Source of the DNA: a candidate division WWE3 bacterium UBA1401
GTDB lineage: Bacteria; Patescibacteriota; WWE3; UBA101185; UBA10185
DNA length: 64,000 nucleotides
Assembly (NCBI GenBank): GCA_002305115.1
Contig: DBQF01000001.1
Location: 10,286-74,285 of the forward strand
Reading direction: 5' to 3'
Shown piece after piece: positions 2 through 38,648 of the stretch. The translations under genes were made by a program, and so were the position numbers. The notes under the pieces were generated by a model. That model saw nothing but the letters and a program-made list of their open reading frames with translations. It made no database searches and was not told where the DNA came from. Each line of letters begins with the position of its first letter. Within the stretch, counting starts at the first letter, position 1.

Positions 2-466
2 TTAAGACATTTCCATAACATTTTAACAGCCACGGGAAAACTTAAAGGATTTCACGTTCAACCTTTTGCAGATTTACAAAAAAAAGTAGAACTATTTAGG
101 GATGAAGCATATTTACTTGTAGCAAAGACTTCAAAGGGAGAAACAGCAGGAGCTAATTTTTATCTAGGCTTTAACAAAAACATCTGGTTTATTCACGGGG
201 GCACAACAGAAGTAGGGCGAAAAGGTAAAGAAGGCTACCAGCTAGTATGGCAATCGTTTGATTTCTTTAAAAAGCGGGGGTATGAAATATTAGATCTGGA
301 AGGTAAAGATGACCCCAGATACCCTAACTTCACGGGAACTTGGGGCGGCTTTGCCCATTTCAAAGAAAAATTTGGCGGAGTAAGTGTGCAGTATCCAGCC
401 CCTAAAGCAAGAGTGTTTAACCCGCTGTTGAAAAAGGTACTGCAGTTTAACAAAATGGCTATTTAG
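2..466 (+). CDS. FemAB-family peptidoglycan bridge-forming transferase, C-terminal fragment (5' end outside window)
   Basis: Frame 2 is open from the window edge to TAG at 464-466; it is absent from the ORF track because it has no start. The translation ...NIWFIHGGTTEVGRKGKEGYQLVWQSFDFFKKRGYEILDLEG...GGFAHFKEKFGG resembles the C-terminal region of FemA/FemB/FemX-type enzymes. Confidence 0.5.
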   Translation, partial: LRHFHNILTATGKLKGFHVQPFADLQKKVELFRDEAYLLVAKTSKGETAGANFYLGFNKNIWFIHGGTTEVGRKGKEGYQLVWQSFDFFKKRGYEILDLEGKDDPRYPNFTGTWGGFAHFKEKFGGVSVQYPAPKARVFNPLLKKVLQFNKMAI

Positions 467-3315
467 CCTTCCCAAGCAAAGGGGCAAATACCTTTGTAGT
501 CACACCAACTACATTGCCACCCCGGATTAGCTTCGAATTTACCCAATTTAATGTCTTCCAAAATGCTTGCTACTTCTTCTTTAGTATCTTCCAGCTTATC
601 GGGTGTACGCACTGTACTAACTTTTTGATTTTCTTCCAAAAAGTAAAACGTTAGTTTTTTTGGCTTATACTTAAGTGCTTCCAATACTCCAATAGCATAA
701 AAGTCCATCTGGTCATCATTATCTACATCTTTTTGCGATTTGGCACTACCTGTTTTGTAATCTATTATTTCCACACCATCTTCAAAAGGTACAATACGGT
801 CTATTCGACCATAAAACTTACTTCCTCCAATACGAATGTTAAAAGATTTTTCCAGCCCCAGCGATTTCTGAGATTTATCAACACTGTTAAAATAGTTGCG
901 GAGCATTTCTTTTCCACTTTCAAACCTGTGTTGCCTATGCTCTTCATTTAGGTATCCTAATGGTTGCCAATTCTTTGCATAAATTTCATAAAGGGCTTCT
1001 AAAGAAACGTCTTCAAACATAAGCCTGGAGTGAAAATCTTTGAGTGTTTCGTGGATAGTAATACCAAAGCTTAGTGCGTGATTTGGCGGTGTAGGAATAT
1101 TTAAAATGTATGCATATTTGTACTGCAACGGACAGCCTTTATACATAGAAATCTGTGTGTAGCTAAGGAAACTTGGAAAAAAGTTGTCTGTTTTTTGTAC
1201 TGTTGTTTCTCTAAATTTAGTTGAAACACCAAACAACCCTTGCTGGCTGGTACCTTTTCTGACATCATCAATATTAACTTCTTCAATTTTTAAGCCTGTT
1301 TCAGTTAGAAAGCCGCTTGGTGTACTATCTCGGAAGCCACCATAGTTATTAGCAAAAGTTAAGTATAAATATTTTTTAGCGCGGGTTAAACCTACATAAA
1401 AAAGCCTGCGTTCTTCTTGAATATGCGCATCGCCACTGGGCAGGGCTTCTTTAATCAGCTCTTCCGGAATCTCAATAGGATCACTTCTGTTTCTTGTTGG
1501 GAATCTGCTGGAAATTAAATCAACCATAAAAACTACCGGAAATTCCAACCCCTTAGAAGCATGTACTGTCAGAAGTTTTACAGTATCAACATCTTCAATT
1601 TCCGCCTGGGCAGGGTTATCACCTGCTTCAAGCATGAGTTCTAAGTAGTCCAGCAGTTCTACAAGAGTAGGAAGTTCATTAGTATCTTTTCTAAATTTGA
1701 CCTCGAATTGTTTAATACCGTTTAGGAATAAATCCATGTTTCTTACACTGAGTTCGTTTTCAATGGTGTCTGTTTTGAGAAACTGGTCAAGATAATTAAT
1801 AGAATTAACTAATTCATAAACTATTTCTACCGGAGTTGCTTTGGCTATTTTCTCAGAGAATTTCCCAATTAGCTGGCAGAATTCTTGAATTTTCTCATCA
1901 CGGGAAGCCTTTGTAACAGCCCACAAGCTTTCTTTTTGAACTCTTGCCATAGCAAGAAGGTGACCTACAGACTCTGCAGGAACACCCAAGCAGTCGATAC
2001 TTAGAGCACGGTATAAACTAATAGCATCTTGCGGATTAACCAATACTTTTAGTAGCGCTAAAACATCCCTAACTTCGTCTCTATCATATAAACCTCTATT
2101 TCCAACAAGCTGATATGGCACACCGTATTTGCGCAGGGCCAGGATAAATGGATCTAAATGGTTGTTGGCACGGGCTAGAATAGCGATGTCTTTGTATGTA
2201 AAACCGGGCTCTTTGGCTAAGATATTCAACAAGGTTAATACTACAAACTCTACTTCAGCTTCAGCATCAGCAAGCTTAATGATTTTTGGTGGTACATCTG
2301 CATCGATCACTTGGCTTTCAAGTTGTTTGGAAATACCAAGCTTAGATTCTAAGCTATCAGGATTATTGTTCTTAACAACTTTATAGCTGGCGTCTAGAAT
2401 TTTCTGGCCGGAGCGGTAGTTTTTCAGCAAAGTTACCATCGCAAAATCTGGATAGTCTTTCTGGAATTCTAAAATATTGGAAACTGCGGCACCTCTGAAC
2501 TTGTAAATAGACTGAGAATCATCACCTACAACAACCAAACTGCGGTCACCCATATCTTGCGGACATAACAGCTTAATAAGTTCATATTGCGCATAGTTAG
2601 TGTCTTGAAATTCGTCAACTAAAACATGCTTAAACTGGGTTTGGTACTTTTTCGAAATAGCCGGGCGGGTCTTGAAAAGTTGAATCGCCCAAACTATTAA
2701 GTCACCAAAATCCATTTTGGAATTTTTTATTTTGAGTTCTGTATATCTTTCATAAGTATCAGCAAGTTCCTGCCATCTGTCCATATCTTCAAGAGTAGTG
2801 TTTTCCACAAAACCCTTAAGTTCTTCCGGAGAAATATTTTCATCTTGCAATCTTGAGATAAATTTCAAAATAGCCGAAATAAACTTTGTGGGGTTACCTA
2901 ACGGACGGTAATAATCCAGGTTAAACTCAAACAAATTTTGTCTGAATAACAACCATTGCTGAGGATAGCTTAAGATTTCGTAGGAGGTGTCTAGCCCAAT
3001 TTCCAAACCCTCTTCTCTAAGTAACCTATCTGCAAAGGAGTGGAAGGTATAAACCCAAGGCTCTTCGTAACCCAAGGGCAAGGCAGTATCAATACGGGAA
3101 AGCATTTCTTCCGAAGCTTTTTCTGTGAACGTAAGGGCAAGTAGCTCGCTTGGGGCTACTTTTCGCTTTTCTACAAGGTATTTAATTCTTTCGGTTATTA
3201 CTCTAGTTTTACCGGTGCCTGCGCCTGCAACTACGAGAAGAGGGCCACTTTCGTGTTGTATTGCCTTTTTCTGATCATCGTTGATAAGGATTTTCTCTGC
3301 CATAGGCCAGGACAT
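463..3315 (-). CDS. UvrD/PcrA-family superfamily-1 helicase fused to a C-terminal PD-(D/E)XK (Cas4/AddB-like) nuclease with a 4-Cys cluster
   Basis: 950 aa. Walker A is AGAGTGKT, with helicase motifs DEFQDTN, VGDDSQSIYKFRGA, TVHASKGLEF and YVGLTRAK. The C-terminus has GRIDRI...IIDYKTG plus Cys in YKGCPLQY and CSWCDYKGIC. Confidence 0.85.
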   Translation of the reverse strand: MSWPMAEKILINDDQKKAIQHESGPLLVVAGAGTGKTRVITERIKYLVEKRKVAPSELLALTFTEKASEEMLSRIDTALPLGYEEPWVYTFHSFADRLLREEGLEIGLDTSYEILSYPQQWLLFRQNLFEFNLDYYRPLGNPTKFISAILKFISRLQDENISPEELKGFVENTTLEDMDRWQELADTYERYTELKIKNSKMDFGDLIVWAIQLFKTRPAISKKYQTQFKHVLVDEFQDTNYAQYELIKLLCPQDMGDRSLVVVGDDSQSIYKFRGAAVSNILEFQKDYPDFAMVTLLKNYRSGQKILDASYKVVKNNNPDSLESKLGISKQLESQVIDADVPPKIIKLADAEAEVEFVVLTLLNILAKEPGFTYKDIAILARANNHLDPFILALRKYGVPYQLVGNRGLYDRDEVRDVLALLKVLVNPQDAISLYRALSIDCLGVPAESVGHLLAMARVQKESLWAVTKASRDEKIQEFCQLIGKFSEKIAKATPVEIVYELVNSINYLDQFLKTDTIENELSVRNMDLFLNGIKQFEVKFRKDTNELPTLVELLDYLELMLEAGDNPAQAEIEDVDTVKLLTVHASKGLEFPVVFMVDLISSRFPTRNRSDPIEIPEELIKEALPSGDAHIQEERRLFYVGLTRAKKYLYLTFANNYGGFRDSTPSGFLTETGLKIEEVNIDDVRKGTSQQGLFGVSTKFRETTVQKTDNFFPSFLSYTQISMYKGCPLQYKYAYILNIPTPPNHALSFGITIHETLKDFHSRLMFEDVSLEALYEIYAKNWQPLGYLNEEHRQHRFESGKEMLRNYFNSVDKSQKSLGLEKSFNIRIGGSKFYGRIDRIVPFEDGVEIIDYKTGSAKSQKDVDNDDQMDFYAIGVLEALKYKPKKLTFYFLEENQKVSTVRTPDKLEDTKEEVASILEDIKLGKFEANPGWQCSWCDYKGICPFAWEG

Positions 3316-3323
3316 TATAACAA

Positions 3324-3352
3324 CTAACTGCCAACCCTCCTACGTTGCAGTT
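3324..3352. repeat. 29-nt repeat copy A (CTAACTGCCAACCCTCCTACGTTGCAGTT)
   Basis: Identical to 5441-5469 in the same orientation. It has internal inverted arms AACTGC/GCAGTT around a 15-nt loop containing CCCTCC. Confidence 0.9.
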
Positions 3353-3353
3353 A

Positions 3354-3541
3354 CCCAGGACCGTCCTCAAGAAATTCATGTTTGTTGTTGCAGTATGGGC
3401 ATCTGGAGGGAAGTTATCGAGGACCGTCCTCAAAATTTGCTCCAAACACTAGCATAATTAGTCTTTACGGCAACAAAAAGCACAGTTGGCATAGTGGGAC
3501 GGTCCCGGGTTTGACCTGGGTTTGAAGAATTAGTGTATTAT
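3354..3541 (+). promoter_or_regulatory. Intergenic module R1: three GGAC-N-GTCC palindromes plus a -10-like TGTATTAT box just upstream of the 3549 ATG
   Basis: Palindromes are centred at 3361, 3425 and 3501. The module aligns by eye with 14168-14400 and shares the 17-mer GAGGACCGTCCTCAAAA. TTGACC lies at 3511-3516 and TATTAT at 3536-3541, 7 nt before the ATG. Confidence 0.55.
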
Positions 3542-3548
3542 TTAAGTT

Positions 3549-4211
3549 ATGAATGAGATTGGCGAGCAGCCAGAACACCTAACATTCAAGACTCCCAACT
3601 TGAAGACTATTTGGATAACTTTAGGGGGCTTGTGTGTTGTAGCAATGGGCTTAGGTAGCTATATGTTACTTACAGTTGAAAAAGAACCAACAAGTAATGT
3701 AACACAAACAGTAGCACCAACTACAGAACCCGCCGCCAACTTTATGCGAGAACCCGAAAACCATGTCTCTATTACAAAGACTAGTGACACTTTTGATACC
3801 TATACAAATGAAGGATTTAAAATAGCAATTTCCTATCCAAATACCTGGCAAGCAGAGCTTTATCACGATCAGGGTATTTTCCTGACACCAAAAGAGGAGC
3901 ATGAAATCGGAATCACTATATATAGGGTTACGGGATTTGGTTACTGTTATAAATATGCAGAACCAGTAGAATTCACCATACAAGACAGAGTGGCAAAAAT
4001 GGCAGACGGTATTGGTGGTACAACGTTTTGCGAGAATCAAGATGTAGATATGACTAACAAAGGTAATACCTATGTATTAGTTCCCGTAGAAAAAGACAGC
4101 AAGTTACATCCTCCCTACAAAGTACATATAATGGCTTATTACCCACTAGACGAAATCGATGAAGCAAAGGAATATTTATCGCAGGTTCTTGATAATTTAG
4201 TATTTTATTAA
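3549..4211 (+). CDS. hypothetical N-terminally membrane-anchored protein
   Basis: 220-aa ORF with one N-terminal TM helix (IWITLGGLCVVAMGLGSYMLL). I recognise no family. The antisense ORF 3666..4040 looks non-coding. Confidence 0.6.
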   Translation: MNEIGEQPEHLTFKTPNLKTIWITLGGLCVVAMGLGSYMLLTVEKEPTSNVTQTVAPTTEPAANFMREPENHVSITKTSDTFDTYTNEGFKIAISYPNTWQAELYHDQGIFLTPKEEHEIGITIYRVTGFGYCYKYAEPVEFTIQDRVAKMADGIGGTTFCENQDVDMTNKGNTYVLVPVEKDSKLHPPYKVHIMAYYPLDEIDEAKEYLSQVLDNLVFY

Positions 4212-4241: not shown

Positions 4242-5438
4242 ATGAAATTCTTACCACTCATAAAAGTTTACTGGCAGCACATACTTGTAACTTTCACCAT
4301 AACTACAGGAATCTTTTGGGCAATATACTTCACTTTCTACCTACCAAAAGCTAATCTTCCAACAAACACTACAACACAAACTGCGCAAAACGCAGAAAGT
4401 GAAGGGAAACAAGAAGAACCAATAGTAATACCACCCACACCGGAAACTTATTCAAAAACAAAAGTGCTGACTTTGAAATATGGGGATGGGGAAAAAGAAA
4501 TTGCCACTAAAACCAGACAGTACACCAATATTATAGGCACATATAAGGAAGAAGTTGTCGAGGTATACGATGGGCTCTCCTATAGCATAAGCTCTGACGG
4601 AAACATATATCTGCTCGATGGGCTTACAGGAACTGTCTATATATATGATAAAAACGGCATCTACAAAAATAGCTTTGTTATAGATGAGGGAAATGAAAAA
4701 GAAATAGACCAAGGGCTTCCTTACGGGCATAGTGAAAAAAAGTATGCACTACGAAGCATTCTAGTTGATAAAGATGATATATATATTTACAAGCTCGTTA
4801 ATATACAAAATGTCGAAGATTATAAGCAGACTCAGGGAATTATTCTGCACTATACAACAGCAGGAAAATATATTGAAACCATAGACATACCTGATGAAAT
4901 AGAATTTGGATCAATAGCTGGAGGCCCTAGAACTTATTTTGTAGCGGGGGCGCCATTAAAGATGAGCAAAAAGGGGAACCTTATGATAACGGGCTGTACT
5001 CAAGCATATACTTCTTACAATGTGTCTGTTAACAATGTAGAAGAGCCGCAAGGTTTTTTCGAGAACAGAGAAGAAGAATATTACGAATTTTTCATGATGG
5101 GATGCAGTGCATTTTGGGAATTTTCTAATGTCTGCCCCAATGGGTTGAGTACACAGTGGTGTAATTGTATGGGTATGGTAAATGGATTCGAAGATAGTAA
5201 AGGTAATTTTTATAATTGGACTATTAAGGAAACCTCTTCAGAACCGCATATTCTGATACAAAGCGGTGTAGTAAAGATAAATAAGGAACAAGAGGTATTG
5301 GCTTATATTGATTTACTGGAGCTAAGTGACACAACTGGTAATATCGATAATCCAAGAGCAACTGAAAATGGAGAGGTGTATGTGATGGTAAAGGAAGATG
5401 ATGGAAAGAGTTTGTATAGGTATACGGTTAACAACTGA
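4242..5438 (+). CDS. hypothetical N-terminally membrane-anchored protein
   Basis: 398-aa ORF with an N-terminal TM helix followed by a Thr/Gln-rich linker. TATAAT at 4229-4234 lies 7 nt before the ATG. I recognise no family. Confidence 0.6.
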   Translation: MKFLPLIKVYWQHILVTFTITTGIFWAIYFTFYLPKANLPTNTTTQTAQNAESEGKQEEPIVIPPTPETYSKTKVLTLKYGDGEKEIATKTRQYTNIIGTYKEEVVEVYDGLSYSISSDGNIYLLDGLTGTVYIYDKNGIYKNSFVIDEGNEKEIDQGLPYGHSEKKYALRSILVDKDDIYIYKLVNIQNVEDYKQTQGIILHYTTAGKYIETIDIPDEIEFGSIAGGPRTYFVAGAPLKMSKKGNLMITGCTQAYTSYNVSVNNVEEPQGFFENREEEYYEFFMMGCSAFWEFSNVCPNGLSTQWCNCMGMVNGFEDSKGNFYNWTIKETSSEPHILIQSGVVKINKEQEVLAYIDLLELSDTTGNIDNPRATENGEVYVMVKEDDGKSLYRYTVNN

Positions 5439-5440
5439 CT

Positions 5441-5469
5441 CCTAACTGCCAACCCTCCTACGTTGCAGT
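5441..5469. repeat. 29-nt repeat copy B (identical to 3324-3352)
   Basis: Perfect 29/29 match in direct orientation, starting 3 nt after the stop of 4242..5438. Confidence 0.9.
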
Positions 5470-5495
5470 TTCTCATAACACCTCTCCCCCTTAAT

Positions 5496-5527
5496 CCCCC
5501 TCTCCATGAATGCCCATGGAGAGGGGG
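5496..5527. other. Perfect 13-bp GC-rich hairpin (CCCCCTCTCCATG-aatgcc-CATGGAGAGGGGG)
   Basis: The inverted repeat is read directly from the sequence. No U-tract follows on either strand, so it is REP-like rather than a classical terminator. Confidence 0.7.
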
Positions 5528-5580
5528 AAAGGCTGCCGCAGGAAGACAGGGGGTGAGGTCAAACCCCCTCTTTACTCACC

Positions 5581-5609
5581 TGCCGCTATAGGGTATAATC
5601 CCACCAACA
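5581..5609 (+). promoter_or_regulatory. Candidate sigma70-type promoter (TTTACT-N17-TATAAT)
   Basis: The -35-like box is at 5581-5586 and a perfect TATAAT at 5604-5609 with a 17-nt spacer. It lies upstream of the SD-preceded ORF at 5639. Confidence 0.4.
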
Positions 5610-5638
5610 TCACAATAACACCTAGAGGAGTCAAAATC

Positions 5639-5836
5639 ATGGATCATTCAAGTAAGGTTACGCTTAACGTCCTCGTCATAGTAGGAACCATAGGGTTCCT
5701 GGCAATAGTTCCCACTAAGTTGCTCTTTAGCGGACGGGAATTCCTCGTACCGCTATGCGTATGGCTTGCGTGCCATGCGATCGCCGCTGTTGGCTACTAC
5801 ATAGCCACGGCTCCGGAAGCACCAAATCACAACTGA
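5639..5836 (+). CDS. small hypothetical membrane protein
   Basis: This is an internal start of track ORF 5510..5836. GAGGAG lies 8 nt upstream of the ATG at 5639. Two predicted TM segments. The upstream part of the ORF runs through the hairpin repeat. Confidence 0.4.
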   Translation: MDHSSKVTLNVLVIVGTIGFLAIVPTKLLFSGREFLVPLCVWLACHAIAAVGYYIATAPEAPNHN

Positions 5837-5846
5837 AGGAGGAGAC

Positions 5847-6227
5847 ATGAAAAAGTACAGGTCAGTATTCTGGGTCTTCGTGGCGGTACTTCTGGCCGGT
5901 GGATCACTTTCCCTATTCTCTGGAAAAAATGAAGGTCTTTTCGGAATAGGGGTTGTAACTAGCTTGTTCGGGCTGGGCTTCACTCCACTCTTCTGGGGCC
6001 TCACCTATAACCCGAAACTGCTGGAAAAAGTGATCGGAAGCCTCATCAAAGGCGGCTACATCGCCCGCCCAGGGGTACTTCTGGCATTTGTCGGAACAGT
6101 CACATACCGGCTAGCACAATACGTGACTAGCTCGCTGCCAGAATTCCACCAGAAGCTGGTGACCCTCATAGTAACGTTATGCGTACTGATTGTGGGGGTT
6201 TACTACCTGGGCAGAAAGAAAGAGTGA
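5847..6227 (+). CDS. hypothetical membrane protein
   Basis: 126 aa with about 4 hydrophobic helices. A strong SD (GAAGGAGGAG) sits directly upstream. Visibly G+C-richer than its neighbours. Confidence 0.5.
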   Translation: MKKYRSVFWVFVAVLLAGGSLSLFSGKNEGLFGIGVVTSLFGLGFTPLFWGLTYNPKLLEKVIGSLIKGGYIARPGVLLAFVGTVTYRLAQYVTSSLPEFHQKLVTLIVTLCVLIVGVYYLGRKKE

Positions 6228-9044: not shown

Positions 9045-9046
9045 GA

Positions 9047-9077
9047 TAACGACTAACGACTGACTGCTGACTTCTAA
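9047..9077 (+). repeat. Period-7 stop-codon array following gap
   Basis: TAA at 9047, TAA at 9054, TGA at 9061, TGA at 9068 and TAA at 9075 are spaced exactly 7 nt apart. Together with the gap stop they cover all three plus-strand frames. Confidence 0.8.
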
Positions 9078-9108
9078 CAACTTACAGGAAACTCCTTATA
9101 AGGGCTAT

Positions 9109-9125
9109 GTTAGTAGTTAGTAGTC
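9109..9125 (-). repeat. GTTAGTA heptamer array abutting the stop of the J-domain gene
   Basis: The sequence is gttagta gttagta gtc. In minus sense it reads TGA-CTACTAA-CTACTAA, placing stops at +7 and +14. Confidence 0.75.
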
Positions 9126-10035
9126 ACAACTCCCTATACTCCTCCAACAACCTCTTCTGTTGCTTTGAGAGCTTCTTAGGAATCTTCACAAAAACCTGCA
9201 CAATAACATCACCCCTACTATTACTATTAAACTTGGGCATACCCTTACCTTTAATTAAAAGCTGAGTGCCCGGCTGAGTACCGGCAGGAATCTTAAGCTT
9301 AGCTTTCCCAACACCGTTAGTTTTACCCGGGTCTACTACCGGGATTTCTACCACGTCCCCCAAGCTAGCCTGTACAAAATCTATTTCTACGCCTACGCCA
9401 AGATGGTCACCAATGCGTTGAAAAGGTTCCGGGATAGTTACCCTAAAAGTGATAAACAAATCGCCTGGAGGCATACCAGTGGCTCCTGGCATACCTTTGC
9501 CGGGGAAGCGCATCTCAGTGCCGTTACGTACTCCCGCGGGTATTTTTACAGTAAGCTTGCCGCTTTCCACATTTACAGTGCGCTCACCGCCTTTGACAGC
9601 TTCTGCAAATTCCACGCGCATTTCGTAGTGTAAGTTTTTGCCTTTTTTCTGTCTTTGGGAATTAAAGCCCCTAAAGCCAAAGAATTCTTCGAATATATCA
9701 AAGGGGTCAATATCACCAAAAGGTGTACCCCCGGAGGTGTTGTAAGTGTAGGTAAATGGTCCATAGCGGCTGCTTTGGGCACCGGCGTTACCAAAACCAA
9801 AGCCAGGGTCGGCTGTGCCGTATTGGTCGTACATTTTGCGTTTTTGAGGATCTGAAAGTACTTGGTAGGCTTCGTTTATTTCTTTAAAGCGTTTTTCTGC
9901 CGTGGTTTTGTCTGCGTCGGCAACCATGTCTGGGTGGTGCTCCCGCGCGAGCTTTCTGTAGGCTTTTTTTATGTCTTCGTCGCTGGCGTTTTTGGGTACA
10001 CCGAGTATGTTGTAGTAGTCTTTGTTGTTAGGCAT
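9124..10035 (-). CDS. J-domain co-chaperone (DnaJ/CbpA type, no zinc-finger region)
   Basis: The J domain reads [31 protein letters not shown], followed by a G/F-rich region and DnaJ C-terminal domains. No CxxCxGxG repeats. Confidence 0.85.
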
Positions 10036-13389: not shown

Positions 13390-14112
13390 TTAAAATGAAC
13401 TAACTTCTTTGATAAGCCCCGCAGTATATCTTAAAGTGGGAATAATACTGGGGTAATACATACGAGCAGGCCCCAACACACAAACTGTACCAGCCTTTTT
13501 GTTTGTCTTAAAAGGTGAATACAATAAGCAGCACAGTGCTAAATTAGCATCACCGAGCTCTTCCCCAATTACGCAATACACGCTGCCGTCTTCCGTAGGG
13601 GTTTTATCAAAAACCTGCTCTAATAACTCATACCTATCAAGTAAATGAAGAGCCGCTCTAGCCACATCAATATCCCAGAATTCTCTGTTTTCAAGCATAT
13701 TAGACATACCAGCCGGGATAACTTCACCACTGTCTACGGTAGCAAAAGTGAGCTGTTTGGTCATATCCGCAAGTGTAACTACTGTTTCTCTTAATAATTT
13801 ATGGAATTCAAACCTATGAGGCCATAATCGCTGCCTTAAGGCAACTTCTTGTAGTACTGGAAAATCCTCTTCTTGCATTAATTCATTTAGAAAGTATTTG
13901 TAAGCAGCTGAAGTTGGAACTCTTCCCGAGGATGAATGCAACATTTCCAAGAAACCCTCACGTAAGAGAGCCGCCATCTCGTTTCGTACCGTGGCAGCGG
14001 AAAAATCCAACTCATATTTTTGAACTAGCGCAATGGAACCAACAGGCTCGGAAGAGGAAATATACTCTTTGATAATGTATTCTAAGAGCTGTATCTGACG
14101 TTCGGATAACAT
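13390..14112 (-). CDS. hrcA: heat-inducible transcriptional repressor HrcA (short form)
   Basis: N-terminal winged-helix region LSERQIQLLEYIIKEYISSSEPVGS...SAATVRNEMAALLREGFL. It heads the hrcA-grpE-dnaK order. 240 aa. Confidence 0.85.
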   Translation of the reverse strand: MLSERQIQLLEYIIKEYISSSEPVGSIALVQKYELDFSAATVRNEMAALLREGFLEMLHSSSGRVPTSAAYKYFLNELMQEEDFPVLQEVALRQRLWPHRFEFHKLLRETVVTLADMTKQLTFATVDSGEVIPAGMSNMLENREFWDIDVARAALHLLDRYELLEQVFDKTPTEDGSVYCVIGEELGDANLALCCLLYSPFKTNKKAGTVCVLGPARMYYPSIIPTLRYTAGLIKEVSSF

Positions 14113-14113
14113 G

Positions 14114-14149
14114 TTATCAGTAATATACCATGAGTGCTAATAGAGTCAA
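14114..14149 (-). promoter_or_regulatory. hrcA promoter (TTGACT-N16-TGgTATATT) overlapping a half-degenerate CIRCE (TTAGCACTC-N9-TACTGATAA)
   Basis: In minus sense the -35 is at 14144-14149 and the -10 at 14122-14127, 9 nt from the ATG. The CIRCE left half is perfect and the right half matches 6/9. Confidence 0.4.
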
Positions 14150-14167
14150 GAAGGATAGCGGGTGGTT

Positions 14168-14400
14168 TCAGGACGGTCCTGGTGAAAATTCCCGAAAACA
14201 CTGTTAGTAAGAGGAATGGAGGGTTGGTACTGAGGACCGTCCTCAAAAATCGTCACCAAAAACAATAGAATTCAGCAACCTAGCAACAGAATATGCAATT
14301 GACATATTGGGACGAGCCCCAAGGTTATAGGTCATGGTTGATTGCTTCCCGCCAAAGGCCAGTAGCTGGGAGCTAGAAGCTAAATTCTGTATACTATACT
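14168..14400 (+). promoter_or_regulatory. Intergenic module R2, a paralogue of R1: GGAC-N-GTCC palindromes plus a TGTATACT box upstream of the 14405 ATG
   Basis: Palindromes are centred at 14175, 14238 (a perfect 7-1-7, TGAGGAC-C-GTCCTCA) and a degenerate one at 14314. The spacings of 63 and 76 nt mirror R1. Confidence 0.55.
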
Positions 14401-14404
14401 TACC

Positions 14405-15304
14405 ATGAAAGAGGCTGCCCTGAAAAACATCATCACTTCCGCACTAAAAAAACCCCGCCTGCTTTTCTGGTTCATCATGATCATCGTCAGCACTGCAGGT
14501 CCCTTAATTACCACTTATATTTTTTCCAGAGGTATCTCGGCGCTGGAAACTCATCAGGAATTTATTGTGGTGATAGAATTTTTCATGATTTTTGCCATTA
14601 TTCTCATTTGCGAGAATACGCTGAGACTGGTTGCTAAAGCAAAAATTGCAGTTTATGCAGAAGAAGCCATCATGAACATTCAAAAAACTTTAATAAGCTT
14701 TATTGACCCGATAGGAGAAGACAGAAAAGAAATAATTCAGGCCATTCGCAACTTAACAGACGCCATTGGAGGCTTTATAGTGTTTGCCAGAGACAGCGGC
14801 ATGGGTGCAGTAATAAATTTTATTTCGGTACCAACTATTTTATTCTTCATAGATAAAAAGATATTTTTGCTGGAACTTGCGCTGATCACTGTATATATCT
14901 TTACAACAAGAATCTTTGCCAAAATCTACGAAAAGCACTTTGAAAAATTAGACAAGGCCAAAGAACACTACTTTTCACAGATACTAATTTCAAACCATGT
15001 GGTACACCAGGCAGTGGAACTGCTTAAGATTCTGGCAAGAGTAGTTAGAGTTTGGGCGCTGGGGTGGATCTCTGCTCAAAACTTAATTGCAGTCTTTAAT
15101 TTCTTCGTAGTGTTCTTGGTAGTTAAAGATATTGTGCACGGCACTAAACAAATTTCGGACCTGGTACTTATTATTGGTTACACCAATCAGTCCCAAGGCT
15201 TTTTAAATAGCATTACAACCGCTATGGAAAGCTTGATGCAAATCAAAGCAGGGCTGGAAAGAGTACACGTGGTCACAAAATCTAAGTCTTTAATATCTGT
15301 CTAA
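14405..15304 (+). CDS. ABC-exporter-type transmembrane domain protein without an ATPase domain (possibly truncated)
   Basis: 299 aa with six-helix, ABC_membrane-like organisation. It ends in ...GTKQISDLVLIIGYTNQSQGFLNSITTAMESLMQIKAGLERV, which is where an NBD normally follows. Its 3' end overlaps convergent lepA by 23 nt. Confidence 0.45.
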   Translation: MKEAALKNIITSALKKPRLLFWFIMIIVSTAGPLITTYIFSRGISALETHQEFIVVIEFFMIFAIILICENTLRLVAKAKIAVYAEEAIMNIQKTLISFIDPIGEDRKEIIQAIRNLTDAIGGFIVFARDSGMGAVINFISVPTILFFIDKKIFLLELALITVYIFTTRIFAKIYEKHFEKLDKAKEHYFSQILISNHVVHQAVELLKILARVVRVWALGWISAQNLIAVFNFFVVFLVVKDIVHGTKQISDLVLIIGYTNQSQGFLNSITTAMESLMQIKAGLERVHVVTKSKSLISV

Positions 15305-36291: not shown

Positions 36292-38554
36292 AAGATACGA
36301 CCATAATCAAACCGAACAAGAGATATATCAACTGTGGTTGGATTTGGGAGTATTTAGCCCGGAACGCCAGATAGCGCTACTAGAAAAGCACGGTATAAAA
36401 CCGAAAAATAAAACTTTCTCTGTTCTAATGCCACCGCCAAACGCCAATGCGCCGTTACACATGGGGCACGCCACATACACTATTCAGGATCTTATGACAC
36501 GCTATAAACGTATGCAAGGGTTTAAAACAGTGTATGTGCCGGGAACAGATCACGCAGGGTTTGAGACGCAGGTGGTGTATGAACGACTACTAAAGAAACA
36601 GCAAAAATCAAGGTTCGATTTTGACAGAAAAACATTGTTTGAAGACATTCTGGCCTTTGTTAAAGAGAATTCCGGAGTAGCAATTCAACAACTAAAAAGA
36701 TTAGGCATGAGTGCAGACTGGAGCAGGTTAACTTTTATGCTGGACAAACAGGTAATTAAAACTGTGTATGATACATTCAAAAAACTGCACGAAGACGGGC
36801 TTGTGTATAGAGACTTTTATTTAGTCAATTATTCGCCACATCACGGCACAACCTTCAGTAATTTGGAAACTGAACATATAGAAAAAACTACTTGTCTCTA
36901 CTTTGTTAATTACAAGGTAAAAAACAGTGAAGAAGTGATAACTGTAGCAACCGTTAGACCAGAAACCATATTTGCAGACACTGCTATTGCAGTAAATCCC
37001 CAAGATAAGAGGTACAAGAAACTAGTAGATAAAACTGTTATTAACCCATTAACTGGCAAAGAAATGCCTGTTATTGCAGATGATGCCGTTGACATGGAAT
37101 TTGGTACAGGTGCTCTAAAAATTACCCCAGGCCACGACTTTACAGATTATGAAATAGGAAAAAAACATAACCTGGAAATAATTTCTATTATTAATCTGGA
37201 AGGCAAACTGCAAGGCACTGGCACAGAAGTTGATGGATTAAGAGTAAAACAGGCTAGAGAAAAAACTGTAGAAATTTTGAAAGAAAAAGGAGCGTTAGCA
37301 AGAATTAATGAGAATTACGTACATAACTTACTGGTAGATTACAAAGACAAATTGCCCATAGAGCCAATGCTACTACCAAACTGGTTTGTAAGAGTAGATG
37401 GTATGGCACAACAAACTATTAGGGCCGTGGAAGAAAATAAAGTTAAGTTCAATAAACCAGTATGGAAAAAAGAAATGCTAAGGTGGTTAAAAGATATTAG
37501 AGATTGGCCAATTAGCAGGCAAATTGTTTTTGGTATAAGAATCCCTGTCTGGTACAACGTGGAGGAGACTAAAAATGTTTTTGTTACTTTTCTGGATAAC
37601 CAGGGTAATTCACATGAACTGTTATTGGAAAATGCCCTGACAGAAGGCTTTACTATCGAAGAAATAAGAGAGGGTTTACAAAAATTAATTGCACCCACCA
37701 ATGCAAAATACGTGATTGCGGAAGAACTTCCGGGGGACAGCTACTTACCTGAAACAGATACTTTTGATACTTGGTTTAGCTCAGGCCAGTGGCCATTAAC
37801 TACATTAAAATACCCCGACGGAGAAGACTTTAAAGAATTTTTCCCAACCTCCTTTATGGATACAATGTGGGATATTTTGTTCTTCTGGATTGCCCGAATG
37901 CTTATGTTTAGCCTGTATCTTACAGAGCAGGTGCCATTTAGACAGGTGTATATACATGGAATGGTCACAGACGAACATGGTCAGAAAATGAGCAAAAGTA
38001 AGGGCAATGTAATTAACCCAATGGATTTTATCGAAAAGTATGGCGCAGACGCCCTAAGAATGGGCATTTTGGTAGGAGGGAACACAGCAGCTAGAGAGTT
38101 TAGCCTAAGCGAAGATAAGGTCAGGGGGTATAGAAATTTTGCCAATAAAATTTGGAATATGGCTAGATTTATTTTAGGCATGGTAGAGCAGAGTGATAAA
38201 TCAATACCCAATTTTAATGAAGCTGTAAGGGAAAAGTGTACCGCAGAAGACACAAAAATATTAGAGGAACTTGCTATTTTGATAACAGATGTTAATAACA
38301 GTTTTAAGAGACTAAGGTTTACAGACGCGGGTAATGCTATTTATCATTTTATGTGGCATAGGCTAGCTGACGAATATATTGAGCACGTGAAAAATAGGGA
38401 AGATAAGGACGTGGCACTTTCGGTGTTGACTTATTGTTACAACACTTGTTTGAAGTTATTACACCCATTTATGCCTTTTGTAACGGAAAAGATTTGGGAA
38501 AATATGCCTAAAGAAAAATCTATACCCCTTATTATCGCCCCCTGGCCGAAATAA
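36281..38554 (+). CDS. valS: valyl-tRNA synthetase (lacks the C-terminal coiled-coil extension)
   Basis: The class I HIGH-type motif is PPPNANAPLHMGHA and the KMSKS motif is KMSKSKGN. The editing-domain region is present. 757 aa. Confidence 0.95.
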   Translation: MLDKRYDHNQTEQEIYQLWLDLGVFSPERQIALLEKHGIKPKNKTFSVLMPPPNANAPLHMGHATYTIQDLMTRYKRMQGFKTVYVPGTDHAGFETQVVYERLLKKQQKSRFDFDRKTLFEDILAFVKENSGVAIQQLKRLGMSADWSRLTFMLDKQVIKTVYDTFKKLHEDGLVYRDFYLVNYSPHHGTTFSNLETEHIEKTTCLYFVNYKVKNSEEVITVATVRPETIFADTAIAVNPQDKRYKKLVDKTVINPLTGKEMPVIADDAVDMEFGTGALKITPGHDFTDYEIGKKHNLEIISIINLEGKLQGTGTEVDGLRVKQAREKTVEILKEKGALARINENYVHNLLVDYKDKLPIEPMLLPNWFVRVDGMAQQTIRAVEENKVKFNKPVWKKEMLRWLKDIRDWPISRQIVFGIRIPVWYNVEETKNVFVTFLDNQGNSHELLLENALTEGFTIEEIREGLQKLIAPTNAKYVIAEELPGDSYLPETDTFDTWFSSGQWPLTTLKYPDGEDFKEFFPTSFMDTMWDILFFWIARMLMFSLYLTEQVPFRQVYIHGMVTDEHGQKMSKSKGNVINPMDFIEKYGADALRMGILVGGNTAAREFSLSEDKVRGYRNFANKIWNMARFILGMVEQSDKSIPNFNEAVREKCTAEDTKILEELAILITDVNNSFKRLRFTDAGNAIYHFMWHRLADEYIEHVKNREDKDVALSVLTYCYNTCLKLLHPFMPFVTEKIWENMPKEKSIPLIIAPWPK

Positions 38555-38560
38555 CGGCTA

Positions 38561-38587
38561 ACCCGCCTATGTTCCACTACGGCGGGT
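38561..38587. other. GC-rich hairpin ACCCGCC-N13-GGCGGGT, related to the hairpin at 20430-20445
   Basis: 7-bp stem directly after the valS stop. It shares CCCGCC...CTACGGCGGG with the GIY-YIG flank. No U-tract. Confidence 0.55.
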
Positions 38588-38620
38588 AAGCTACTTACAA
38601 GGGAATCCATATAAAATGTA

Positions 38621-38648
38621 AGTTAGTAGTTAGTAGTTAGTAGTTACT
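38621..38648. repeat. Four tandem copies of the heptamer AGTTAGT (last copy with one mismatch) overlapping the rplY stop
   Basis: The sequence is agttagt agttagt agttagt agttact. This gives TAG in all 3 plus frames and TAA in all 3 minus frames. Confidence 0.9.

Follow-up and report, generated by a model that had tools for sequence, protein, structure and literature searches.

The genome of the candidate division WWE3 bacterium UBA1401 carries, within a 64,000-nucleotide stretch of contig DBQF01000001.1 (referred to here as the window), two intergenic clusters of the short palindrome GGAC-N-GTCC. The question raised by these clusters is whether they are the operators of a transcriptional regulator, as a first, sequence-only reading had proposed, or DNA of a different kind. 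The present analysis suggests that they are repeats of the REP/REPIN-like class (REP, repetitive extragenic palindrome; REPIN, REP doublet forming a hairpin) of the REPtron/TIRtron type, cognate to a clade of TnpA-Y1 transposases that extends across the Candidate Phyla Radiation (CPR), a reading to which we assign a probability of roughly 0.7. The clusters are diverged copies of a three-palindrome element of the sort that builds up in bacterial intergenic DNA, and since the palindrome borders a tyrosine-transposase gene in related CPR bacteria, it most likely represents selfish or domesticated repeats.

The exact motif, GGACNGTCC, is present five times in the window against 0.20 expected copies, and none of 100 shuffles attained that number. 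A scan of the full 64 kb confined the exact copies to the two loci, at 3358-3366, 3421-3429 and 3497-3505 in locus 1 and at 14171-14179 and 14234-14242 in locus 2, where a degenerate third site completes the set (Table 1); all six copies are extragenic and capable of forming a hairpin, though they fold weakly. The sequence-only reading had described these palindromes, the degenerate one included, and had placed them in divergent spacers opposite a UvrD-type helicase-nuclease and hrcA, and in all of this it was correct. Its first centre (3361, properly 3362) and first spacing (64 nt) were each off by one: the centres are 63 and 76 nt apart at locus 1 and locus 2 alike. The identical 17-mer that it reported in both loci, GAGGACCGTCCTCAAAA, is found at 3419 and 14232. 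An independent Logan assembly (L001), though possibly built from the same reads, likewise has three sites with spacings of 63 and 76 nt. The orientation of a perfect palindrome can be read from its centre base alone; as these bases run C-C-G in locus 1 and G-C-(G) in locus 2, the two copies carry site 1 in opposite orientations.

The equal spacings permit a gap-free, in-register comparison of the two loci, and this comparison defines the repeated unit. Sites 1, 2 and 3 match at 10/11, 11/11 and 9/11 positions, respectively (82-100%), whereas identity is 55% between sites 2 and 3 (p<0.0005) and 37% between sites 1 and 2, a value that is not significant (p=0.08), although a TGGAGGG block in the latter segment matches after a 1-nt shift. 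The flanks are random, with 23% identity over the 35 nt to the left of site 1 and 21% over the 42 nt to the right of site 3. The paralogous unit is a discrete 150-nt element that starts and finishes with a palindrome. The two loci are indeed paralogous copies in the same orientation, as had been claimed, and they are not a recent segmental duplication, which had been named as a possible refutation. The “two-thirds identity” given earlier for the sequence between the sites was too high, and the gapped MAFFT value of 71% is inflated by the palindromes themselves. The TGTAnnnT boxes reported ahead of the start codons do exist, but because homology ceases exactly at sites 1 and 3 they fall outside the repeated unit: each -10 box is that of a resident gene rather than of the module. 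BLAST of both modules against all fetched loci (designated by L numbers) returned nothing beyond the palindromes, and no module homologs outside the source genome.

Related genomes are informative at locus 2. The dnaK-grpE-hrcA<>g299 arrangement of the window (<>, divergent genes) recurs in L255, L256/L257 and L258, the last followed by a convergent lepA, and the hrcA<>g299 spacers of these relatives measure 68, 107 and 90 nt, respectively, against 292 nt in the window. GGAC-N-GTCC is absent from the spacers of all three relatives, which keep an element resembling CIRCE (controlling inverted repeat of chaperone expression), a GTCAAG block, and a -10 of TATACT or TAAAAT. The window holds ~226 nt of extra spacer DNA (about 14154-14379) that contains the 150-nt unit and is missing from L255, L256 and L258. 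Because three relatives share the gene arrangement with a shorter spacer and no palindrome, the unit is, by this comparison, a lineage-specific insertion rather than a conserved operator. A presence/absence polymorphism between relatives, which would be the mark of mobility, is thus seen at this spacer, whereas the retention in orthologous promoter regions that would mark an operator is seen for CIRCE and not for the palindromes. Lack of conservation in relatives was what the sequence-only reading itself had named as grounds for abandoning its proposal, and this is the situation at locus 2. A joint insertion of module and g299 between lepA and hrcA, considered from L122, L123 and L125, was rejected, g299 being syntenic in L255, L256 and L258; in other WWE3-like relatives lepA lies directly upstream of hrcA. 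The spacer DNA alone is new, g299 itself being ancestral to a subclade. No orthologous spacer was obtained for locus 1, where the downstream gene g398 has no homolog except itself in a set of 5.8 billion proteins.

The palindrome is also a member of a wider family. A metagenome scan for pairs of AGGACNGTCCT sites separated by 56-71 nt returned at least 120 loci, to which a viral scan added four; open reading frames (ORFs) in the fetched loci were called mechanically. Many of the metagenome matches are coding tandem repeats with a period of 15-23, from which the window sites differ, and these were set aside. In a large subset of the listed loci, two to four sites lie ~57-68 nt apart in non-coding DNA. 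In 26 loci of this subset, where non-coding DNA makes up only 18% of the sequence, 95 of 118 sites (81%) are extragenic (p = 5e-50), and in L169 nearly every spacer is occupied (10 sites in 13.5 kb), with three dispersed doublets that have conserved spacer sequence in common, as do the two units of the window. The genes downstream of the arrays are functionally unrelated (release factor, NusB, TrmD, PCMT, ThrRS, DUF4956), three of ten tested encode IS200-like Y1 transposases, and in other genomes the sites also flank the 3′ ends of genes. A scan of the genome collection with GAGGACNGTCCTCAAA gave, among the 120 matches listed, almost entirely chance singles in unrelated phyla, the informative matches being L066 and L121.

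Over 136 sites the core positions are fixed (C/G, A/T, G/C or A/T, G/C, then A/T), while the next 3-10 positions vary by genome yet stay complementary; the stem extends at least 3 bp past the core in 50% of the sites, against 1.6% expected. Examples of the arms around the core are GATAGCAA / TTGCTATC, ATATCCA / TGGATAT, CTGTTTGA / TCAAACAG, and TTCGAAAA / TTTTCGAA, and the longer version of the palindrome, GCAAGGACCGTCCTTGC, can be set against the short versions of the window. This covariation fits a stem with a conserved apex that would be read by a protein. Moreover, the centre base is uniformly S or W within a locus (mixed in 7 of 203 pairs), which points to homogeneity of the repeat family within a genome. 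A motif seen by eye between sites, TGTTGTTG (unit 1 of the window, L128, L129, L148, L190), showed no enrichment in a 6-mer test of the 136 inter-site segments and was dropped. Two further forms of the family were observed. In Ca. Saccharibacteria (CAZPQT010000002.1; L121, 6995-7052) a 58-nt double palindrome with two GGACWGTCC cores lies inside an apparently continuous membrane-protein ORF and resembles the in-frame insertions of REPs or RPEs (Rickettsia palindromic elements) into coding sequence. A doublet, CAAGGACGGTCCTTGCGG ... CAAGGACCGTCCTTG, 64 nt apart, is conserved in L146 (10088-10152), L160 (3776-3840), L181 (91-155, where it adjoins a tRNA gene), and L188 (2418-2482 and 4653-4717), and encloses three DnaA-box-like motifs, TTATCCACA once and TGTGGATAA twice.

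The sole recurrent neighbour of the sites is a Y1 transposase gene; no regulator gene recurs. In L066, from the genome scan, an IS200-like Y1 transposase gene lies between inverted copies of TTTGAGGACnGTCCTCAAA. A hidden Markov model made from ORFs resembling RAYTs (REP-associated tyrosine transposases) detected a homolog in 12 of the 124 listed motif-selected loci (~10 of them distinct) in addition to L066, and L198 contains fragments of such a gene. Every one of these genes has GGACNGTCC at both borders, typically with two to four sites 5′ of the gene and one 3′ of it. As loci selected by motif are biased, the test was inverted: a profile of 10 proteins (A4), applied at E<=1e-10, retrieved 5,234 protein clusters, and the named top matches are all from CPR bacteria (Paceibacterota, Zambryskibacteria, Colwellbacteria, Nomurabacteria, Parcubacteria, and Minisyncoccia). 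All four genes picked by protein alone have GCAAG[G/A]AC-S-GT[C/T]CTTGC palindromes on both sides. In L250, GGACCGTCC stands on either side of the Y1 gene; in L251 and L252 the gene is flanked by the GAAC-S-GTTC variant; and in L253 at least six GAAC-type palindromes upstream (9650-9970) are combined with the GGAC type downstream, so that both core variants are found in one locus. The association between the palindrome family and the transposase clade holds without motif selection. In L253, at least two of the upstream palindromes are followed by a terminator-like hairpin with a T-run. The RAYT-bearing contigs were also considered as members of the window's own lineage, a possibility set aside after tblastx, by which L254 alone shares genes with the window.

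In the proteins the HUH motif takes the form NH[FY]H and is accompanied by an LFQGRF block and by Y[IV]HxNP with the catalytic tyrosine. The columns of NH[FY]H and Y[IV]HxNP are invariant or nearly so in alignments A2 and A4 (consensus NHFHLL, LFQGRF, YIHLNP; lengths 175-247 aa), and the proteins therefore display the combination of HUH and Y...NP by which transposases of REP/RAYT systems are recognized. For the four proteins scanned, Pfam gave Y1_Tnp alone (E<=0.01), and the best NCBIfam match was REP_Tyr_transpos (NF047646), the only match for three of them, the fourth having one more that is negligible (E = 0.003). The single match of profile A4 in the PDB is 4ER8, the Escherichia coli TnpA-REP bound to REP (E = 6e-5). 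The sequence upstream of the genes suggests a further connection. In L200, L251 and L253 the order is TTGCTA, 17 nt, TATAAT or TATACT, 6 nt, and ATG, the TTGCTA being the right arm of the proximal palindrome, and L250 has a similar layout with TTGCTT and an 18-nt spacer. By this predicted layout the palindrome supplies the -35 of a leaderless promoter at the transposase genes, and self-regulation of these genes is possible.

How such units could spread may be outlined from the biochemistry of E. coli TnpA-REP and IS200/IS605 TnpA (PMC3479197, PMC6006769), an analogy from which the binding, cleavage and mobility proposed here are taken. Palindromes exposed on single-stranded DNA (ssDNA) at the replication fork would fold into hairpins with the conserved apex GRAC-N-GTYC; the Y1 enzyme would bind these hairpins and cut and rejoin the adjacent DNA; and REP-bounded units would thereby be copied or moved. 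At locus 2, at least, the unit was inserted into a divergent promoter spacer that already existed. The palindromes are probably DNA recognised by a protein. Because the window has no transposase gene, few copies, and weakly folding sites, its copies may be old, decaying, and possibly inactive relics, and their effect on neighbouring genes is probably limited to spreading the divergent promoters apart.

Several observations weigh against this reading. Classical REPs prefer the 3′ ends of genes, unlike the two units, both of which lie in divergent promoter spacers. Two clusters in 64 kb are sparse for an active REP family, and no excess of degenerate copies accompanies them (16 GGAC-N-GTCC matches with up to two mismatches in the 64 kb, 15.5 expected). 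As ssDNA, the window copies (11-15 nt) fold with -1.2 to -4.1 kcal/mol, compared with -9 to -17 for those flanking RAYT-like genes, although short-armed copies occur in RAYT-bearing contigs too, such as L169 and L144. A search of the window found no RAYT-like gene, and the transposase link in its own genome is drawn by analogy from other CPR genomes. The CPR proteins score 30-58 bits against NF047646, below the equivalog cut-off of 80. As the 56-71 nt distance was preselected in the metagenome scan, its spacing statistics are biased, and the apparent 63-nt preference is not independent. L254, the contig with the closest g299 homolog (52% identity; different upstream gene), has a single degenerate site, GAGGACGGTTCTGGTG, upstream of that homolog, which resembles site 1′ and could pass as conservation. 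Finally, the GT[AG]G tetranucleotide that marks the hairpin foot of canonical REPs (PMC6006769, PMC3733652) is missing: in the window, L066, L200 and L250 the palindromes have neither GTAG nor GTGG next to them.

Among the alternatives, the original operator proposal survives best. It posits that the three palindromes, with their 63-bp phasing (six helical turns), bind a dimeric regulator of the downstream membrane-protein genes and perhaps of the divergent genes as well. Short arms of 5-7 bp around one free centre base are indeed typical of operators, the two units, each in a divergent promoter spacer, have the same orientation relative to the downstream gene, the sites are better conserved than the DNA between them (82-100% versus 37-55%), and weak hairpins favour double-strand recognition. 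Furthermore, the degenerate site of L254 precedes the -10 of the g299 homolog by ~35 nt, and the proximal palindrome of the RAYT loci overlaps a -35, so that sites can occupy promoters. Nevertheless, the sites are missing from three orthologous hrcA<>g299 spacers, the homology between the loci stops at the palindromes as it would for a discrete inserted element, and the start codon is not equally far from the last site in the two cases (48 nt at locus 1, 91 nt at locus 2). The proteins downstream of the two units are mutually unrelated, and g398 is an ORFan. Elsewhere the motif is found ahead of unrelated housekeeping genes and also beside 3′ ends, and in place of a coherent target set with a cognate regulator there is an assortment running from release factor to Y1_Tnp and ORFans in which only the transposase recurs. 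A dimeric transcription-factor operator controlling membrane-protein genes is thus not upheld by the orthologous spacers, the downstream genes or the Y1 neighbour, and we consider it unlikely.

A different functional interpretation is doubtful as well. Here GRAC-N-GTYC and the Y1 enzyme would form an ancient, vertically kept system of the Patescibacteria, in which the repeats double as parts of promoters and operators and the “transposase”, now domesticated, acts as a DNA-binding protein that both distributes and controls portable promoter-upstream modules. The same array layout, in which the gene-proximal site is flipped relative to uniformly oriented distal sites, does precede unrelated host genes, including at unit 1 of the window (C-C-G). 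If this were true, the operator idea would have been right in function, with an unexpected regulator.

That the palindrome cluster is the att-like terminus of a cassette that includes the adjacent genes (unit 1, g220, and g398) seems improbable. A direct repeat with 94% identity brackets unit 1 and these two genes, one of which lacks any homolog, site 1 abuts the left copy of the repeat, and an 8-nt sequence, GTTGCAGT, stands on either side of site 1 (3345-3352 and 3389-3396) and resembles a short duplication. At locus 2, however, g299 is ancestral to its position and only the spacer DNA is new; neither block has a palindrome at its far end; the window contains no integrase or transposase gene; and the GC content of the blocks equals that of the genome. 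A foreign origin of the adjacent genes was likewise rejected on GC content and on GC at third codon positions (GC3). A third, weaker copy of the direct repeat (65%, at 38551-38584), which forms a local CCCGCC/GGCGGG hairpin, lies in an unrelated convergent spacer, so that the repeat may be a dispersed motif in its own right; an att-like site or another family of repeats are both conceivable. The reverse complement of CCAACCCTCC, which is GGAGGGTTGG, lies inside unit 2 at 14218-14227.

That the spacer is transcribed into a structured non-coding RNA or a 5′ leader is highly improbable, in line with the lesser weight already given to an RNA stem: the minus strand of locus 1 folds with z = -3.8 and the palindromes can pair with one another, but the other three folds have z of -1.7 to -2.0, the minimum-free-energy topologies differ (site 1 pairs with site 3 in locus 1 but with site 2 in locus 2), the centre bases, and hence the possible pairings between sites, are not the same in the two copies (CCG versus GCG), no Rfam family matches at its gathering threshold (at E<=1 only ssnA appears, with 16.7 against 37.3 bits), no terminators were found at the loci, and the downstream genes look leaderless. 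A CRISPR (clustered regularly interspaced short palindromic repeats) array is rejected by the presence of merely three short repeats, unequal spacing (63 and 76), and “spacers” that are homologous between the loci.

Table 1. Coordinates of the palindromes, the repeated units, and their surroundings (window positions unless a contig is named)
Feature	Position	Strand	Centre	Sequence or layout	Remarks
Repeat unit copy 1	3357..3506			150 nt, three sites, palindrome at either end	In-register comparison with 14170-14319
Site 1	3357..3367		3362	AGGACCGTCCT	ssDNA hairpin weak, -1.2 kcal/mol
Site 2	3419..3431		3425	GAGGACCGTCCTC	ssDNA hairpin -3.1 kcal/mol
Site 3	3496..3506		3501	GGGACGGTCCC	Centre base flipped vs sites 1 and 2; ssDNA hairpin -2.5 kcal/mol, equalled by shuffles
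Repeat unit copy 2	14170..14319			Three sites, 63 + 76 nt, third degenerate	In-register comparison with copy 1
Site 1′	14169..14181		14175	CAGGACGGTCCTG	Centre base opposite to that of copy 1
Site 2′	14231..14245		14238	TGAGGACCGTCCTCA	Perfect 7-1-7 palindrome; ssDNA hairpin -4.1 kcal/mol, z = -3.4
Site 3′	14309..14319		14314	GGGACGAGCCC	Degenerate; 9/11 identical to site 3
Proximal palindrome arm as predicted -35	L200 128-170; L250 9960-10003; L251, L253 upstream of 10001				Y1 transposase genes
UvrD/PD-(D/E)XK helicase-nuclease	463-3315	-			Opposite locus 1
Direct repeat, left copy	3318..3353	+		TAACAAC..TAACTGCCAACCCTCCTACGTTGCAGTT, 34-44 nt	Repeat family D1; abuts site 1
-10-like box	3534..3541	+		TGTATTAT	7 nt before ATG 3549; outside homologous unit
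g220	3549-4211	+			No Pfam match; downstream of unit 1
g398 (398 aa)	4242-5438	+			ORFan, no Pfam match; downstream of g220
Direct repeat, right copy	5429..5471	+			Directly after g398 stop codon; 5442-5475 is 94% identical to left copy
hrcA	13390-14112	-			Opposite locus 2
hrcA promoter	14114..14149	-		TTGACT-16-TATATT with TG	Promoter scan; overlaps CIRCE-like element; outside unit
g299 -10	14388..14395	+		TGTATACT	Resident element, outside unit
g299 (299 aa)	14405-15304	+			Membrane gene, no Pfam match; downstream of unit 2

The hrcA promoter was the only one returned by the sigma-70 scans of the two loci, which predicted none inside either unit. It overlaps a CIRCE-like half, GAGTGCTAA, at 14132-14140, and this block and the GTCAAG of the hrcA -35 are kept in L122, L125, L255, L256 and L258. 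Both downstream genes look leaderless, with a -10 box 7-9 nt from the ATG; g299, which has no Shine-Dalgarno sequence, is probably so, and TATACT stands equally far from the start codon in L255 and L256, which have no palindromes, and in L254, with its one degenerate site. The g299 family is small (37 clusters at 50% identity in a full-library HMMER search, with four homologs placed on contigs), and a 594-aa member, P0268, which aligns over residues 29-331, suggests that g299 may be a stand-alone membrane domain of the ABC-exporter type. The HrcA of this lineage, at ~240 aa, is shorter than typical HrcA proteins and matches only the C-terminal domain in Pfam (E = 1e-16; homologs P0002-P0120); the CIRCE-like element is nevertheless kept at the promoter of the short hrcA. 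The nearest HrcA homologs come from Patescibacteria close to candidate division WWE3, the best non-identical one being 67% identical.

Other features of the window were noted in passing. A perfect 13-bp hairpin, CCCCCTCTCCATG / CATGGAGAGGGGG, lies at 5478-5528 and overlaps the start of an ORF at 5510-5836. The two ORFs at 5510-6227 have a GC content of 0.50-0.52 and a GC3 of 0.54-0.58, compared with 0.40 for the window, and no Pfam match. Stop-codon-rich repeats occur at two convergent gene ends, 9045-9125 (TAACGACTAACGACTGA...) and 38590-38647 (GTTAGTAGTTAGTAGT), with 78% similarity over 45 nt, and may serve the source genome as a bidirectional terminator or as a spacer motif.

REP-RAYT and TIRtron systems are already well known, and the feature of the window is itself ordinary repeat DNA. 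For the window the result is deflationary: an apparent signal of an unknown regulon is explained by repeats, and its spacers should be annotated as REP-like repeat rather than as operator. CPR bacteria (Patescibacteria) have tiny, streamlined genomes and are not commonly regarded as hosts of REP-type repeats, and the searchable literature contained no description of such repeats in them. The data point to a very large CPR clade of RAYT-like Y1 transposases (the 5,234 clusters), to a palindrome core conserved across CPR orders, and to palindromes that overlap the transposase promoter and occasionally fall within coding sequence. Several points are undescribed in that literature: a CPR-wide clade resembling subclass 2.1 of TnpA-Y1 with cognate palindromes, a core conserved across distant lineages, the lack of a GTAG foot, arrays upstream of the transposase gene, and an arm serving as the putative -35 of a leaderless promoter. 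If confirmed, these findings would bring a new part of the tree into REP-RAYT biology, provide cognate DNA sites for a subclass reported to have none, and supply a simple sequence tag with which to track the dynamics of intragenomic repeats in uncultured bacteria.

Comparison with known systems places these repeats more precisely. The CIRCE/HrcA operator, present in the same spacer, is likewise short dyad-symmetric DNA in promoter regions, but CIRCE is kept in the hrcA spacer of every relative, whereas GGAC-N-GTCC is not and has no coherent regulon. The bacterial interspersed mosaic elements (BIMEs) of enterobacteria also consist of several REPs clustered at regular spacing with conserved linkers and copied as composite units. 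The REPs of BIMEs alternate strictly in orientation and have defined linker motifs, such as integration host factor sites, whereas the sites studied here are mostly direct with the gene-proximal one flipped, and no common linker motif was found among them. Classical REP sequences are genome-specific, in contrast to the apex or core GRAC-N-GTYC, which is conserved across very distant CPR lineages.

The REP/REPIN-RAYT systems, exemplified by E. coli TnpA-REP (4ER8) and the Pseudomonas REPINs, share with the present repeats short extragenic palindromes in spacers, their doublets and clusters, and their conserved linkers (PMC3116915, PMC3479197, PMC6006769), and in other CPR genomes also the placement of these palindromes on both sides of a Y1 HUH transposase gene, with the HUH and Y..NP motifs and the profile match to 4ER8. 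They differ in that the CPR transposases fall under the NCBIfam equivalog cut-off, that arrays of two to four sites at ~57-68 nt stand upstream of the CPR transposase gene, and that the window copies are very short-armed with no transposase gene nearby. The TIRtrons, whose enzymes are the TIRYTs (terminal inverted repeat-associated tyrosine transposases; Di Nocera 2013, PMC3733652), correspond to TnpA-Y1 subclass 2.1 (Quentin 2018, PMC6006769; Bertels group 1). The consensus of the repeats flanking TIRYT genes is GGGGWSAS (PMC3733652), unlike the GRAC-N-GTYC that flanks the CPR genes, and subclass 2.1 has been reported to lack REP-like sequences nearby and to include Y1 proteins with DnaA_C-like tails (PMC6006769); Pfam detected no C-terminal helix-turn-helix or DnaA_C-like tail in the four CPR proteins scanned, and CPR genomes go unmentioned in the 2018 survey (PMC6006769), whose text contains none of six CPR lineage names looked for. 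The CPR proteins nonetheless have the NH[YF]H, FQ and Y[IV]HLNP motifs of subclass 2.1 and, at ~220-240 aa, a size close to its median of ~238 aa (Table 1 of PMC6006769), and their genes, like those of the TIRYTs, are flanked by inverted or self-complementary repeats that can also be dispersed as dimers or clusters.

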